Assembly (NCBI GenBank): GCA_919902445.1
Contig: CAKKQZ010000052.1
Coordinates: forward strand, 1-54,113
Source: Omnitrophica bacterium GWA2_41_15
GTDB taxonomy: Bacteria > Omnitrophota > Gorgyraeia > Gygaellales > Profunditerraquicolaceae
Reading direction: 5' to 3'
DNA: 54,113 bases
Position numbers and translations under genes: made by a program. The notes under the pieces are model-generated. The model was not told where the DNA came from and did no database searches. It saw only the letters and a program-made list of their open reading frames with translations. How positions within the stretch are numbered: position 1 is the stretch's first letter; the number at the start of each line of letters is the position of its first letter. Positions 9,194-54,080 of the stretch are shown piece by piece.

Positions 9194-9205
9194 ATGCTTA
9201 TTCTT

Positions 9206-9282
9206 TAGGGACGTTTCTTAACTTAGCTATAAGGTGTCCCCTACACGGGGACACTTTATAGCTGGCTTGAGAAACGTCCCTA
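9206..9282. repeat. 77-bp palindromic element, TAGGGACG...CGTCCCTA (copy 1)
   Basis: Outer arms TAGGGACGTTTCT/AGAAACGTCCCTA and inner arms GTGTCCCC/GGGGACAC. A second 77-bp copy lies at 30091-30167. Confidence 0.85.
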
Positions 9283-9288
9283 CTTTTA

Positions 9289-13399: not shown

Positions 13400-15847
13400 T
13401 TAGAATCCATGGCTTGCGCTGAAGTGGAATCTTCCGCTGTTTTTATCATCTTCGCCAGGGGCTTTATTTAAGGGTATGCCGTAATCAAGCATTATCGGGC
13501 CGATGGGGGTTTTAAGCCGAAGCCCCAAACCAATACCTGATTTAAAACCGCCTGTTTCCTTAACACCGTTTGCGTCTTCCGACGAACCGAGATCGCCTAA
13601 CTTTGACCACACATTTCCTACGTCATAAAATGCAGCCACTTTAAGAAAGTTGAATAAAGGATACGTATACTCGATATTGCCGATAGCCATAGAATTTCCG
13701 CCTAACGGGTCCTTTGACGCGGGGTCAATAGGGCCTAATGACCTTTCCTCGTAACCTCTTACCGAGGAAGCGCCGCCTGCAAAGAATCTTTCGTATATCG
13801 GTATACGCTCGGTATTTGCGTAGGCAGCGGCTAAACCTACCCTCCCCCTTATCTCCAGGACAGAATTTAAAGGCATTGGGAAATAATGCGAAGCGCGGCC
13901 GAAAAATTTCCAGAAATCCTTATCCCCTGCTAACGGCCCGCCGGCCCATTGGACTGAACCATTAAAGTAATCGCCTTTTCTTGGGTCAAAGACATTATCG
14001 CGGCTGTCAAAGGTAAGGCCGGGAGAAATACTGCTGACTGTATTCTTCCCAACTTCCTGCTTTAAGTCATTTGTGGCATTATCAGTTATGTTAGAGATAT
14101 CAATCTCTTCAATCTTGTACATCAAATCAGACCTTAAATATTCGCTTATTTCTTTGCCCAGGCGAAGGTCCCCCCCGGTAATTTTTTCATCATAACCGTA
14201 ACCAACATCGGAATCCCTTTTACGCTCGCGCCTGTAGGCGTCAAAACCAAAAGATACAGGATAATCAAAAATCCAGGGCTCTGTAAAACTTAAATCAAAG
14301 CCGCTGCTGACAGTTCCGAATGAAGCGCGGAATTTCAAATTTTGCCCGCCTCCGGTAAAATAAGGAAAATTCTTCCAATCAAAATTCTTCTGCTCTACCT
14401 CTACAAACCCTACGAACTGGTCAACCGTACTGTAACCTCCGCCAAAGCTAAAAGACCCGGTCTTTGTTTCCTTCACCTCAACTATCAAATCTTTTTTATC
14501 AGGCAGATTTGTATCCTCGGTATCGTAACTGACCTCTTCAAAGAACCCTAAGTTCTGCAGCCTCTCCTTGCTGCGGCGAAGTTTTTCTCCGTCAAATTTT
14601 TCTCCGGGACGAATCCTTAATTCACGGCGTATAATCACGTCTTTGGTCTTTACGTTCCCCCTTATCTTAACCTTAGCCACATAAGCAACTTCATTTTCAG
14701 TAATGTTGTAGGCGATATCCACGCGCCCGGTCTGCGAGTTAACAGAAGTTGTATCCTGAATTTGGGCAGATATGTATCCTTTATCAAAATACAGGCCATG
14801 GATACTGGCGGCATCGCTCTTTAGCGCTTCATCGCTGAAAACCTTACCCGGGATACACTCTTTAAGCGTAGCCAGTATCTCCTTCTCAGGAATTTCCTTA
14901 TTACCTTGTATAGTTACATTGCCGGCCAGATATTTTTTACCCTCCTGTATCTTTATGTAGATGTATAAAGAATAGGTTTTTTTGGCATCCGGCTTGACTT
15001 CATAATTAACCACTGCGTCGGTAAAGCCGCCTCTGGTGTAGAAAGACTTTATACGCTCAATATCCTCCTTTAATACCTCATCCTTCAGGACCCCTGCGTT
15101 AAAAATCCATGCGCGTTTTGTCTTCAGTAATTTTAGGATGCGTTTTTTTGGAAACGCCTTATTCCCTTCTACAGCTATATCTTTAATCCTTACCTTCTTG
15201 CCCTCCAGGGCACTAAATTCTACTTTTGCTTTATTAGTTTCTTTGTTTAGGTCGGCCTTGTAAGTTATCTGCGCTTGGCTAAAGCCCATTTTTTCATATA
15301 ACTTCTCAAGCGTGCGCACATCTTCGGTTAAATTCGGATAATCCAGATACTGCGTTTCTTTGGATTTAAGCATCCCTTTTAGTTTCTCATCCTTCATGGT
15401 AATGCGGTACATTCCGGAAAAACCAATCTTTTCTATGATGGGCCTTTCTACAACCGTGAGGATGATTTTTACGCCGTCTTTGTAATTTTGCGTATCTATT
15501 TTTATGTCGCTAAAATACCCCAGAAGGTAAAGCCGCTTTAAATCATCGCTAACAACATTCTCCTGATAAGGGCTGCCTATGCGGGTCTTCATCTTCGAAA
15601 CAATAGTATTGGTGCTTATGTTCTTATTCCCCTTTACATCTATTCCGGTAACTAATTTTAAGCCTTCGGGTGTTTGCGCTTCGATGGATTCCTGCGATTT
15701 TACTTCGGAGGCAACAGGGGAAGATTCGTCTGGTGGGGATTGCGCGAATACGCTTATACTGCTCCCTAATATTAAAAAAATTGAGAAAAACGTGGAAATT
15801 TTCTTACGCATTGTTGTTATTATATATGAATTGCCCGAGGTAAGCAA
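13400..15847 (-). CDS. bamA: outer-membrane protein assembly factor BamA
   Basis: 815 aa. Signal peptide, POTRA repeats, C-terminal beta-barrel ending ...SASHGF. Start is either TTG at 15847 (AGGAG 8 nt upstream) or ATG at 15811. Confidence 0.92.
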   Translation of the reverse strand: MLTSGNSYIITTMRKKISTFFSIFLILGSSISVFAQSPPDESSPVASEVKSQESIEAQTPEGLKLVTGIDVKGNKNISTNTIVSKMKTRIGSPYQENVVSDDLKRLYLLGYFSDIKIDTQNYKDGVKIILTVVERPIIEKIGFSGMYRITMKDEKLKGMLKSKETQYLDYPNLTEDVRTLEKLYEKMGFSQAQITYKADLNKETNKAKVEFSALEGKKVRIKDIAVEGNKAFPKKRILKLLKTKRAWIFNAGVLKDEVLKEDIERIKSFYTRGGFTDAVVNYEVKPDAKKTYSLYIYIKIQEGKKYLAGNVTIQGNKEIPEKEILATLKECIPGKVFSDEALKSDAASIHGLYFDKGYISAQIQDTTSVNSQTGRVDIAYNITENEVAYVAKVKIRGNVKTKDVIIRRELRIRPGEKFDGEKLRRSKERLQNLGFFEEVSYDTEDTNLPDKKDLIVEVKETKTGSFSFGGGYSTVDQFVGFVEVEQKNFDWKNFPYFTGGGQNLKFRASFGTVSSGFDLSFTEPWIFDYPVSFGFDAYRRERKRDSDVGYGYDEKITGGDLRLGKEISEYLRSDLMYKIEEIDISNITDNATNDLKQEVGKNTVSSISPGLTFDSRDNVFDPRKGDYFNGSVQWAGGPLAGDKDFWKFFGRASHYFPMPLNSVLEIRGRVGLAAAYANTERIPIYERFFAGGASSVRGYEERSLGPIDPASKDPLGGNSMAIGNIEYTYPLFNFLKVAAFYDVGNVWSKLGDLGSSEDANGVKETGGFKSGIGLGLRLKTPIGPIMLDYGIPLNKAPGEDDKNSGRFHFSASHGF

Positions 15848-15858
15848 GAAAAAAACTC

Positions 15859-16220
15859 CTATTCAATGCGGGCGATGTTTTCAAATCTTGTATATTCTTT
15901 GATAAATGAGCGCATAACTTATGGAACGATAGTGAACATAAGTTATTACGCGAATTAATCCTTGACACGTAAGGTTCAAATCTTAATGTCATCGAATTCG
16001 TGTCAAGCATAACCTTGTTACTCAATGCGGGCGATGTTTTCAAACCTTGTATATTCTTTGATAAATGAGCGCATAACTTATGGAATGATAGTAAACATAA
16101 GTTATTGCGCGAATTTTGAGCACACAAAGTTTCTATTAGCGAAATCCCGCGTAAGCGGGGACCCTTGACACGTAAGATTCAAATCTTAATGTCGTCGAAT
16201 TCGTGTCAAGCATAACCTTG
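15859..16220 (-). repeat. two tandem units, each a 52-bp copy of the dnaB 3' end plus hairpin modules
   Basis: dnaB tail copies at 15859-15910 and 16018-16069 match 16221-16272 at 51/52 and 50/52. Interleaved modules: A (15911-15956, 16070-16114), B (16116-16160), E (15962-16017, 16164-16220). Confidence 0.9.
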
Positions 16221-18013: not shown

Positions 18014-18023
18014 AATACACCTC

Positions 18024-18228
18024 TTAATGAGCCCACAACTTACGGAACGTCAGTGAACGTAAGTTGTTTGGGCGAATTATTGAGCACCTAAAGTTTCTAT
18101 TAGCGAAATCCCGCGTAAGCGGGGATCCCCACATCTTGTTTCCAAGCAAACAGCGGGATAAGTTCGGACAGATAAGTTATGTCGTTTAGATTTCTTATTA
18201 TATAGTTCTCCATAACTTATGTCCTTAC
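18024..18228 (-). repeat. full stop-to-start hairpin cassette (modules D-C-B-A) between rpsR and rplI
   Basis: A 18024-18078, B 18080-18124, C 18126-18158, D 18159-18228. It fills the whole spacer between the rpsR stop codon and the rplI SD. Confidence 0.85.
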
Positions 18229-18525
18229 TTAACGCGTATAAGGAATAAGTGAAAGGAACCTTGCCTTTTTTATTGCCTCGGCAATACGCCTCTCGTGTTT
18301 GGCGCAATTTCCTGAGATACGGCTTGAAACAATCTTTCCGCGCTCGGTAATAAAGGCCTCAAGCCTTTTTACATCCTTATAATCGATAGACTTCACCTTA
18401 TCCTCCGCGCAGAAACGGCAGAATCTTTTTCTGGCAGGCAGATGATCGCGCTTCTTAATAATTATCTTACCTCTGGCACCGGCTTTAGTGCCCGCTTTAG
18501 TAAATGTTTTTGTCTTAACTTTCAT
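18229..18525 (-). CDS. rpsR: 30S ribosomal protein S18
   Basis: 98 aa. [30 protein letters not shown] signature. Confidence 0.92.
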
Positions 18526-28407: not shown

Positions 28408-28480
28408 GTTGCGGGACAGTCACTCCTTACAAGGGACTGTCCCCGAAGGGGACTGTCCCTTGACAGTCCCTGGCCGCAAC
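28408..28480 (-). repeat. composite long hairpin built from four GGGACWGTC units downstream of hisG
   Basis: Outer stem GTTGCGG/CCGCAAC encloses GGGACAGTCAC, AGGGACTGTCCCC-gaa-GGGGACTGTCCCT and TGACAGTCCC. On the sense strand the apex is a UUCG loop. Confidence 0.8.
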
Positions 28481-28493
28481 ACTATTCTATCAC

Positions 28494-29378
28494 CTAATAA
28501 ATAACTTTATTCAAAGGGTATTCTATAATCCCTTGAGCGCCTGCATTTTTTAACTGCGGGATCAACACGCGCACAATTTTTTCGTCTATCACTGTCTCTA
28601 TGGCATACCAGCCATCCTCGGAAAGTGAGGAAACAGTAGGTTTTTTCAATGCAGGCAGGATAGCAGCCACTTTCTTCAAGTCATTCTTCCTGACATTCAT
28701 TTTTAAACCTACCTTTTCTTCGGCAGATATAGCTCCTTTTAAAAGCAGCGCGATCTGCTCCATCTTGGATTTTTTCCAGCTATTTCTAAAGGCTTGCTTA
28801 TTTGCGATAAACTGGGTAGTAGACTCGGCAATAGTGGCGATCTCCGCTAATTTATTCGCCATCAAGGAGCGGCCAGTTTCAGTCAACTCCACAATTGCAT
28901 CAACCAATCCAGCGCTTACCTTTACTTCGGTTGCCCCCCAGCTGAATTCTACTTCAACCTTTACTTTATTTTCTTTAAAATATTCCCTTGTAACGTTGAC
29001 TAATTCTGTGGCTATGCGCTTCCCTTCTAAATCCTTTACAGACTTCATCCCGGAGTCCTGAGGCACAGCCAGCACCCAACGCACTTTATTTAAACCCTGT
29101 TTGGCATAAGCTAAATCTGTTACCCTCACTACATCTGATTTATTCTCCAGTATCCAGTCGTTACCGGTAATCCCGCAGTCTAAGGCACCGTCCTGCACAT
29201 ACCTTGACATCTCTTGCGCCCGTAGTAATACCGGTTCTATCTCGCGGTCATCTATCGACGGAAAATAAGAACGCTCGCTGGATAAAGAAACATTAAATCC
29301 CGCTTTCCTGAATATCTTAAAGGTAGACTCTTGAAGGCTCCCCTTTGGCAAGCCTAATTTAAGCACTTTGTTTGGCAT
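28494..29378 (-). CDS. hisG: ATP phosphoribosyltransferase (long form)
   Basis: About 294 aa from [17 protein letters not shown]. The ORF-track start at 29393 is a GTG inside a repeat stem. Confidence 0.88.
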
Positions 29379-29380
29379 TT

Positions 29381-29567
29381 TTAATGAGCCCACAACTTAC
29401 GGAACGACAGTGAACGTAAGTTGTTTGGGCGAATTATTGAGCACATAAAGTTTCTATTAGCGAAATCCCGCGTAAGCGGGGCTCCCGCATCTTGTTTTCC
29501 AAGGAAACAGCGGGAGAGGTTCAACCGCATAACTTATGGAGCGTAAACATAAGTTATCGGCACGGAC
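29381..29567 (-). repeat. hairpin cassette (modules D-C-B-A) forming the hisG 5' UTR
   Basis: A 29381-29435, B 29437-29481, C 29482-29518, D 29519-29567. Confidence 0.85.
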
Positions 29568-29620: not shown

Positions 29621-30076
29621 TTAAACAGGGGGCTTTGAAAGCCGCTCTCTTACAAGTCCGCTTACAAGCGTTCCATCCGCCTGGCCGGAAACCTTAGCTG
29701 TAACCTCTTTCATTACTCTTCCCATATCCTTAATGCCTTGCGCGTTGGTAGAGGCAATAGCCTCTTCAATAACCTTCTTTATCTCATCTAAAGAAAGCTC
29801 GGCAGGAAGATAGGTTTTTAATATCCCTGCTTCTTTCTTCTCTTTTTGGGCCATCTCCAGGCGAGCGCCTTTTGTAAACTGCTCAATAGAGTCCTGACGC
29901 TGTTTAATCTGCTTTTTTATCACGGAAATCACTTCGCCATCATCGAGCTTCTCCTTTTTCTTTGCCAAGGCAAGATTCATCATATCCGCCCGCAAGAAAC
30001 TAAGGACAGAACTTTTCAGGGTATCCCTGTTTTTCATCGCTTCTTTATAGTCATTAAGGATTTTTTCTTCCAGCAT
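29621..30076 (-). CDS. GatB/YqeY domain protein
   Basis: MLEEKILNDYKEAMKNRD... is typical of YqeY. Start moved to ATG 30076 (AAAAGGGGGA upstream) because the longer ORF enters the 77-bp palindrome. Confidence 0.75.
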   Translation of the reverse strand: MLEEKILNDYKEAMKNRDTLKSSVLSFLRADMMNLALAKKKEKLDDGEVISVIKKQIKQRQDSIEQFTKGARLEMAQKEKKEAGILKTYLPAELSLDEIKKVIEEAIASTNAQGIKDMGRVMKEVTAKVSGQADGTLVSGLVRERLSKPPV

Positions 30077-30090
30077 CGCTTCCCCCTTTT

Positions 30091-30167
30091 TAGGGACGTT
30101 TCTCAACTTGAATATAAAGTGTCCCCTTTAAGGGGACACTTTACTAACGGCCTTAGAACCGTCCCTA
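30091..30167. repeat. 77-bp palindromic element, TAGGGACG...CGTCCCTA (copy 2)
   Basis: Same length, termini and inner GTGTCCCC/GGGGACAC arms as 9206-9282. Confidence 0.85.
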
Positions 30168-30172
30168 GTTTT

Positions 30173-53747: not shown

Positions 53748-54080
53748 TTAAGATACTGTTCCTGAAAATATCTGTTTTAATTCCTGAGCAGGCCTCCCGG
53801 ATTCAAGCACAACTAGAATATCTTTAAGCATTGCTTCTGTTGAATAACAACGCTCTTCTTCTAATCTTAGGATATCGGCAATACAGGAGACAACTTTCTG
53901 CATATCTGAATTGCCTTTAAGTAAAGATACCTGGACATATTCTTTTATCCTTTCTGCAGAAGGAATTATTCCAGAGCTTACCATCCGCGCTATTTGTTGC
54001 CACTCTTCATCAAGGTTAACTTGAAGTAGGGACTGTCCCCGCAGGGGACTGTCCCTAAGGCCTATGCTTAGATTACTCAT
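53748..54080 (-). CDS. hypothetical protein
   Basis: 110-aa ORF with no recognisable motif. The first about 25 codons are encoded by a GGGACTGTCCC palindrome pair, so the true start may be the internal Met (MVSSGII, about 53984). Confidence 0.4.
   Translation of the reverse strand: MSNLSIGLRDSPLRGQSLLQVNLDEEWQQIARMVSSGIIPSAERIKEYVQVSLLKGNSDMQKVVSCIADILRLEEERCYSTEAMLKDILVVLESGRPAQELKQIFSGTVS

Follow-up and report, generated by a model that had tools for sequence, protein, structure and literature searches.

The window, by which is meant the whole stretch of 54,113 nt that was analysed, is contig C52 of a genome assembly of 1.29 Mb (97 contigs, 94.6% complete). It harbours the gene string rpsF-ssb-rpsR-rplI-dnaB, and between rpsR and rplI a cassette of hairpin modules is located (18024-18217, plus strand). 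The start codon of rplI (ribosomal protein L9; 17570-18013, minus strand) is situated 10 nt from the A end of this cassette, with a Shine-Dalgarno (SD) sequence, GAGGTG, in between, and the stop codon of rpsR (ribosomal protein S18; 18229-18525, minus strand) is situated 11 nt from its C-side end. Three modules, all read on the plus strand, make up the cassette. Module A (18024-18079) consists of an outer stem TTAAT/ATTA, a tandem G.A (TGA...GAA) and a covarying inner stem GCCC.../...GGGC, and module C with its tail (18125-18217) contains a CCCCAC...GCGGG hairpin with a nested stem-loop followed by the tail hairpin GATAAGTTATG...CATAACTTATG. Between them lies the copy of module B studied here (18080-18124, plus strand), which is composed of box 1 (TTGAGC, 18080-18085), a spacer (18086-18102), box 2 (GCGAAA, 18103-18108) and the hairpin P2, formed by T18109, CCCGC (18110-18114), the loop GTAA (18115-18118), GCGGG (18119-18123) and G18124. 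Since this copy of B is placed inside the rpsR-rplI operon it must be transcribed in sense. A σ70-like site (AGGACA-17-TATAAT, 10/12) was also noted on the minus strand at 18197-18225, in the loop of the tail hairpin and at the upstream (sense) end of the cassette, but this may be a chance match.

A search of the window with the 45-nt pattern of B, leaving two positions free, gave exact matches at 16116-16160, 18080-18124 and 29437-29481, all on the plus strand, and none in 100 shuffles of the window. The sole differences between the three copies are found at positions 9-10 (AC, CT and AT, respectively), and these three states (AC, AT, CT) are also the only ones of this dinucleotide in the whole genome. 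The first copy is located downstream of dnaB, among duplicated dnaB 3' ends in the dnaB/bamA gap, and shows an AB architecture with an A hairpin before it (16063-16115, plus strand) and a different hairpin after it. The third belongs to an A-B-C cassette (A at 29380-29436 and C at 29482-29525, both on the plus strand) between yqeY (29621-30106) and hisG (28494-29393). The initial annotation had described three nearly invariant 45-nt copies carrying a CCCGC-GTAA-GCGGG hairpin, with a loop of the GNRA type on the plus strand only and with this strand antisense to the flanking genes. All of this was confirmed: the pattern matches exactly at the three sites, the hairpin is present, its loop is GNRA on the plus strand only and within the window every flanking gene is encoded by the minus strand.

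When the search was extended to the complete genome, a 35-nt core of B was found in 27 copies at ≤3 mismatches and in 28 at ≤5, and 34 matches were obtained with the covariance model described below. Profile searches gave module totals of about 115 A, 31 B and 57 C in the 1.29 Mb, arranged as A (31), AC (13), ABC (12), ACA (6), AB (5) and longer strings. An A module precedes B in 26 of 28 copies and a C-type or another hairpin follows it, and when the context is complete B is always found between A and a C-type hairpin. There is either no B or a single one per cassette, so that the copies are dispersed singly, and since several of them are situated at contig ends the repeat evidently breaks the assembly. 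In the 26 cassettes with full context, copies of B share 94.5% identity on average in pairwise comparison; the figures for the 58 nt of A to the left of B and for the 44 nt to the right of B are 68.9% and 64.7%, respectively. The suggestion that the neighbouring modules diverge freely while B stays fixed is hence valid genome-wide, and the search for the 45-mer that had been called for returned about 28-34 copies, which do not show the drift of A and C.

To compare strains, contigs from other groundwater runs were aligned to the window. In a strain that is ~95% identical (a 5930-nt contig from run X9) the whole cassette 18024-18217 is absent, with 6 nt in its place; the joint goes from 18023 to 18218 with flanks of at least 255 nt, the contig reads rplI and then rpsR, and 18217 is the final base that is missing. 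The same contig also lacks 15839-16205. Comparing the empty site of the related strain with the filled one at 18023/18218, no target-site duplication was seen at this one empty site. Among the contigs compared with the window there was no reliable case where B alone is present or absent. Joints skipping B and part of C did occur, but they have only 24-27 nt on one side and are best read as contigs of other cassette copies. As the whole cassette is missing in such a close strain, cassettes come and go as units.

The distribution outside this genome depends on how the motif is defined. With the 35-nt core at ≤3 mismatches no match was found in 40 relatives, a blank result caused by the genome-specific spacer and not by a lack of the motif. 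When the pattern was reduced to TTGAGCAC and GCGAAATCCCGCG with a gap in between, a species collection gave 68 loci, 51 of them real and 17 chance matches in GC-rich coding DNA. The 51 real loci come from more than 25 MAGs, all Omnitrophota by deposited title or by the genome set used. The exact pattern is present in 28 of 401 Omnitrophota genomes, all of the same class as the window. A covariance model of the two-hairpin unit represented by B (hereafter the dyad), built from 27 short copies, was applied to 60 genera of the same Omnitrophota family and detected the motif in 37 of them with 1-37 copies each, the richest genomes being G014 (37), the genome of the window (34), G306 (20) and G006 and G446 (17 each). 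The motif was also seen in MAGs deposited as 'Planctomycetales' or 'Planctomycetia' (L044, L038, L046, L065, L068, L070, L072); the model match of L044 is identical in score and span to the G023 locus from the Omnitrophota family of the window, so these Planctomycete labels may be wrong. A search of viral contigs gave a single match, which lacks the hairpin, falls in GC-rich coding DNA and is attributed to chance.

What the other genera share with the window is the pair of boxes, TTGAGCAC and AGCGAAAT, and a TCCCGC/GCGGGA hairpin after them, with spacer and loop lengths that vary. An alignment of 78 copies shows that both boxes are near-invariant, that the spacer is 12-29 nt long, free in sequence and sometimes occupied by a small hairpin with C-GNA-G loops, and that the P2 loop ranges from 3 to 47 nt and sometimes holds a whole nested module or stem-loop. 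Tandem double units exist in other genomes (L157, L164 and the JAZDLY loci). In the MAG JAZDLY01 (L039, L074, L078, L085, L096, L099) a different composite has been amplified, co-directional with the genes and consisting of two tandem box 1/box 2 units, the TCCCGC hairpin and then a hairpin with the loop GAGC..TAGCGAA.

Within the genome of the window the spacer of B, AAAGTTTCTATT, is almost invariant, whereas in other genomes it is free. That a spacer unconstrained elsewhere is shared by ~30 local copies points to a recent master copy or to homogenisation. We therefore interpret the identity of B as having two layers, an old constraint on the helix bases and a recent burst or homogenisation in this genome. 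Recent mobility and sequence-specific constraint had been proposed as alternative causes of the high identity, and both find support: the unconstrained spacer is identical within this genome, indicating recent amplification, and one and the same pair of boxes recurs in dozens of genera, indicating constraint on the sequence. How B is conserved and how it is built are described here for the first time.

Concerning the fold of B, 96.8% of the cells of the P2 helix (TCCCGC/GCGGGA) are paired and compensatory changes occur at four of its six pairs, values reached by 0 of 500 shuffles. The two boxes may form a second helix, P1, by the antiparallel pairs U-A, U-A, G.A, A.G, G-C and C-G around the spacer. 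P1 is absent from nearest-neighbour (energy-minimisation) folds of B, where P2 alone is predicted, and B as a whole folds marginally better than shuffles (z about -1.3). As the box columns hardly vary, the support for P1 comes from one compensated variant (L050, 7042-7093), in which both boxes are replaced by TCCCGC and GCGGGA and are fully Watson-Crick, and from the analogy with A. Of the parsed A hairpins, 28 of 29 retain TGA on the 5' side and GAA on the 3' side, and the inner four base pairs covary (GCCC/GGGC, GCGC/GCGC, GGCC/GGCC, GCAC/GTGC); one A subfamily starts with TTAATGAGCAC and ends with GTGCGAATTAA. The A-C junction GCGAATTAATCCCGC parallels GCGAAATCCCGC within B, and the C hairpins have the CCCGC/GCGGG base of B. 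Judging from these sequence likenesses, box 1 and box 2 appear to correspond to the base of an A-type hairpin, which has tandem G·A and the form T-GA-stem-GA-A, and P2 to that of a C-type hairpin. Being built from the helix bases of A and C, B resembles a reiterated, miniaturised A-C unit more than a foreign insert, and A-B-C reads as A-(mini A-mini C)-C. This bears on the earlier proposal that B is an insertion into the TTAAT junction between A and C. The junctions themselves are as proposed, the direct A to C junction GAATTAATCC occurring 66 times in the genome and the A to B junction GAATTATTGAGCAC 25 times, with B between A and C, but the notion of B as a separate insert has to be revised because the only strain polymorphism observed at this locus removes the whole cassette and because B shares the helix bases of A and C.

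The genes of this genome lie on the G-rich strand and the cassettes are placed in a regular manner relative to them. In 67 of 76 cassettes the element is antisense to the gene on its A side, so the order on the gene-sense strand is stop-C-B-A-start. The outer end of A (TCATT in sense) is separated from the start codon by a median of 12 nt and is followed by AAGGAGG-N6-8-ATG or, where there is no SD, by AAAA-ATG; in at least five cases a TTGACA box lies within about 10 nt beyond the cassette. Thirteen cassettes are found in divergent gaps vs one in a convergent gap, in a genome with 86 divergent and 93 convergent gaps (p = 0.002). The signals that cassettes adjoin are those of the downstream gene, namely an SD, an ATG, a -35 box or a tRNA 5' end, and canonical TTGACA-N17-TATAAT promoters can be found just downstream of some cassettes. 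A σ70 promoter inside B itself was looked for and rejected, no hexamer pair at 16-18 nt spacing being present on either strand, and the spacer length of 12-29 nt also argues against a two-box promoter. Two further features of gene starts were noticed: in some genes (L002:1600-1650, G000 C5 and others) a TATAAT box precedes the ATG by 7 nt and an SD is missing, an arrangement suggestive of a leaderless mRNA, and about ten genes begin 4 nt past a cassette (TCATTAAAAATG), also without SD.

We consider it probable that B is a minimal two-hairpin (dyad) repeat unit, widespread in one class of Omnitrophota and belonging to mosaic modules of the REP/BIME/BOX-like kind. The helix bases would then be the cis-acting core by which the element is folded, recognised and copied, and for this reason their sequence would stay the same from genus to genus, whereas the interiors are free to drift or to take up nested modules. 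The ~30 local copies of B would go back to a single recent master or owe their likeness to homogenisation, and cassettes are gained and lost whole in intergenic gaps, beside the signals of downstream genes. We infer that copying is transposase-independent and directed to hairpin loops, with duplication of the flank, and that the boxes serve as its recognition core. The analysis brought to light neither an enzyme nor a target rule nor a target-site duplication, so the mobility in this scheme is deduced from differences in presence/absence and in copy number only.

It is possible, though on the whole unlikely, that the dyad is the recognition core of an undescribed form of transposase-free copying, in which a host factor conserved in this class reads the boxes, or else that the boxes are bound by a conserved RNA- or DNA-binding protein having a host function at gene starts. 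In the former case small hairpin modules would be copied into the loops of other hairpins with duplication of the flanking arm, and module loops, tRNA anticodon or T loops and gene boundaries would be the places of insertion. The gap between tRNA-Glu(UUC) and glmS bears on a host function; this synteny is conserved in 30 genera (L135-L164). Depending on its module content the spacer ranges from 9 to >150 nt and consists of about 9 nt, of AGGTGCTCA-ATG, of one dyad, of two tandem dyads or of an A hairpin. In roughly one genus out of three a dyad immediately precedes glmS. The retention of dyads at this site would fit a host function too, as would the end of the dyad, AAGGTGCTCA, which is usable as a ribosome-binding site. 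The variable spacer is nevertheless a case of turnover at an orthologous site and not of stable conservation, and together with the cassette-free strain and the range of 0-37 copies this turnover weighs against an essential host role. Partial or degenerate tRNA duplicates (Ala, Gly, Glu) were observed beside the intact tRNA at L058:3520-3640, at L097:5150-5300 (minus strand) and, upstream of glmS, at L145, L146 and L158; in these duplicates a hairpin module lies exactly within the anticodon loop (between positions 35 and 36) or within the T loop.

A related proposal, which we judge unlikely, is that the dyad in its gene-sense orientation is a portable 5'-UTR or intercistronic element kept by host selection. 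It would read as a 5' hairpin, then UUUCGCUA, the spacer and (A)AGGUGCUCAA, and would supply or frame the ribosome-binding site and stabilise or process the downstream message. Low-copy genomes speak for it, since there the sense end GTGCTCAA is followed directly by GGAGG-N6-ATG (rpsT-like, glnB-like and phoU-like genes), by the ATG itself (glmS and leuB-like, fusA-like, accD-like and hypC-like genes), where AAGGTG can act as SD, or by the mature 5' end of a tRNA (L076). The sequence AGGTGCTCA-ATG is moreover retained at glmS in loci that lack the hairpins (L138, L148), gene starts are preferred over gene ends by 13:1 and the copy at 18080 is necessarily transcribed in sense within the rpsR-rplI operon. 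The sense strand, however, folds worse, with tandem U.C/C.U in place of G.A and with UNNC loops, and some cassettes are positioned upstream of a canonical -35/-10 promoter, including L083 where GTGCTCAA is followed by such a promoter, and hence lie outside any UTR. In addition, module A separates B from the SD in this genome, and the close strain expresses rplI without the cassette.

The folding asymmetry would instead agree with a functional structured RNA made from the plus strand, a cis-antisense or small RNA acting on the 5' end of the opposite gene, in which the tandem-G.A helix and the GNRA-capped hairpin would bind a conserved protein. The plus strand, antisense to the genes in this genome, is favoured by every strand-specific folding signal: it has tandem G.A in the helix where the minus strand has U.C/C.U, A folds with a mean of -20.0 kcal/mol on the plus vs -17.2 kcal/mol on the minus strand, C contains 62 G.U pairs on the plus vs 17 on the minus strand, the A loops are G..A on the plus strand in 85 of 113 copies, and P2 has U.G pairs in eight cases vs C.A in two. 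Boxes kept across genera with stems of variable length at two fixed places are also known from structured RNAs, and the element overlaps the complement of the SD/start region of the downstream gene. We still find this reading improbable. No promoter or terminator is evident for a plus-strand transcript, the motif gave no Rfam match, the number of copies varies between 0 and 37 among genera and the close strain lacks the 18024-18217 cassette. Furthermore, about a third of the loci in other genomes have the opposite orientation to genes, the plus strand being co-directional with them in 12 of ~47 loci, mostly from three genomes.

The reading of B as a lone CRISPR repeat or as a guide-RNA scaffold for a TnpB, IscB or Cas-like nuclease, raised in the initial annotation because of the GAAAC end on the sense strand, is a resemblance only, the minus strand showing a hairpin and then an AU-rich tail ending in GAAAC as in type I repeats, and is largely refuted, with hardly any likelihood left to it: no CRISPR array was found in the 97 contigs (18-mers repeated ≥3 times at 45-100 nt spacing), Cas1 (PF01867, the universal cas marker, with controls that matched), the TnpB domains PF07282 and PF01385 and reverse transcriptase gave no match in the 94.6%-complete genome, the GAAAC falls in the spacer and is not conserved in other genomes, and the copies of B are single and embedded in A/C cassettes. 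A search of Rfam 15 with the window and 18 loci gave no match to the motif at the gathering score or at E ≤10, the only matches near copies being tRNAs, one 6S RNA and one group II intron.

The Omnitrophota are abundant, uncultured, small-celled bacteria with small and tightly packed genomes, and modular hairpins fill up to several percent of their intergenic gaps, including those of ribosomal-protein operons and tRNA neighbourhoods. A defined target has been gained, a 45-nt conserved minimal core of two invariant boxes and one hairpin that is the same across dozens of genera, the dyad can now be annotated with a covariance model, and CRISPR or TnpB is removed as a false lead. The fragmentation of MAGs of this lineage at these sites is likewise explained by the dyad and cassette repeats. 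The point of interest is the copying of modules with no linked transposase, and a possible effect on the expression of essential genes.

When comparing B with known elements, the CRISPR repeats of the I-E/I-F style share with it, on one strand, a short GC hairpin with an AU-rich tail behind it, but B has no spacers, array or cas genes and its tail is unconserved. Locally B reads GA-(GC...GC)-GAAA and then a helix, similar to the GA-stem-GAAA junctions with tandem sheared G.A of hammerhead ribozymes and k-turns. The core consensus of the hammerhead is CUGANGA; by inspection B has UUGAGCA instead, and no Rfam ribozyme model matched at E ≤10, so this identity was rejected, as was that of a k-turn, for which inspection showed that neither the strand polarity nor the closing C-stem agrees with B. 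Likenesses to IHF sites, CIRCE and boxA (nut) were too weak to be retained.

Four RAYT-like Y1 genes are present in the genome of the window, G000 (C56:5214-5699, C44:6881-7381, C60:28689-29279 and C51:767-1441), each bracketed by its own inverted TAGGGAC...GTCCCTA repeats, which are REPIN-like, and not by A/B/C. In 61 genomes the copy number of B and the number of Y1 genes are uncorrelated (Spearman rho = -0.11), and five of the ten dyad-richest genomes are free of Y1 genes, including 96-98%-complete ones with 20 and 17 copies of B. With repeats of their own at the Y1 genes and no correlation in copy number, RAYT was rejected as the mobiliser of B. Dispersed copies of the TAGGGAC type also occur in the window (9204-9287, 30089-30172, 28432-28460 and 54028-54056) and constitute a second repeat system besides A/B/C.

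A, B and C themselves are short intergenic palindromes occurring in tens to hundreds of copies and arranged in mosaics, as are REP/BIME elements. With the latter they share high-copy, imperfect palindromes combined with short extra-palindromic motifs, a bias in strand and orientation and the breaking of assemblies. In BIME-1 an L motif sits between two REPs. The Omnitrophota elements differ from REP/BIME in favouring gene starts and not convergent 3' ends.

The closest architectural analogue of the A/B/C cassettes appears to be the BOX element of Streptococcus pneumoniae and S. suis, a composite intergenic repeat of the form boxA-boxB(n)-boxC with an optional boxB of about 45 nt (PMC3049150). 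In both systems the end modules A and C measure about 50 nt and the optional ~45-nt B between them folds largely alone, and both show extra module types in relatives, mutual insertion of elements, variation between strains and co-transcription with neighbouring genes (PMC3049150). Unlike BOX, the Omnitrophota element showed no terminal inverted repeats with target-site duplication at the one empty site, and its B occurs zero times or once per cassette in this genome instead of in long tandem arrays. There is no sequence relationship between the two, which belong to different phyla, and the likeness is one of architecture only. In the Omnitrophota element it is B that is the most conserved module, common to a family of genera, and the helix bases contain tandem G.A.
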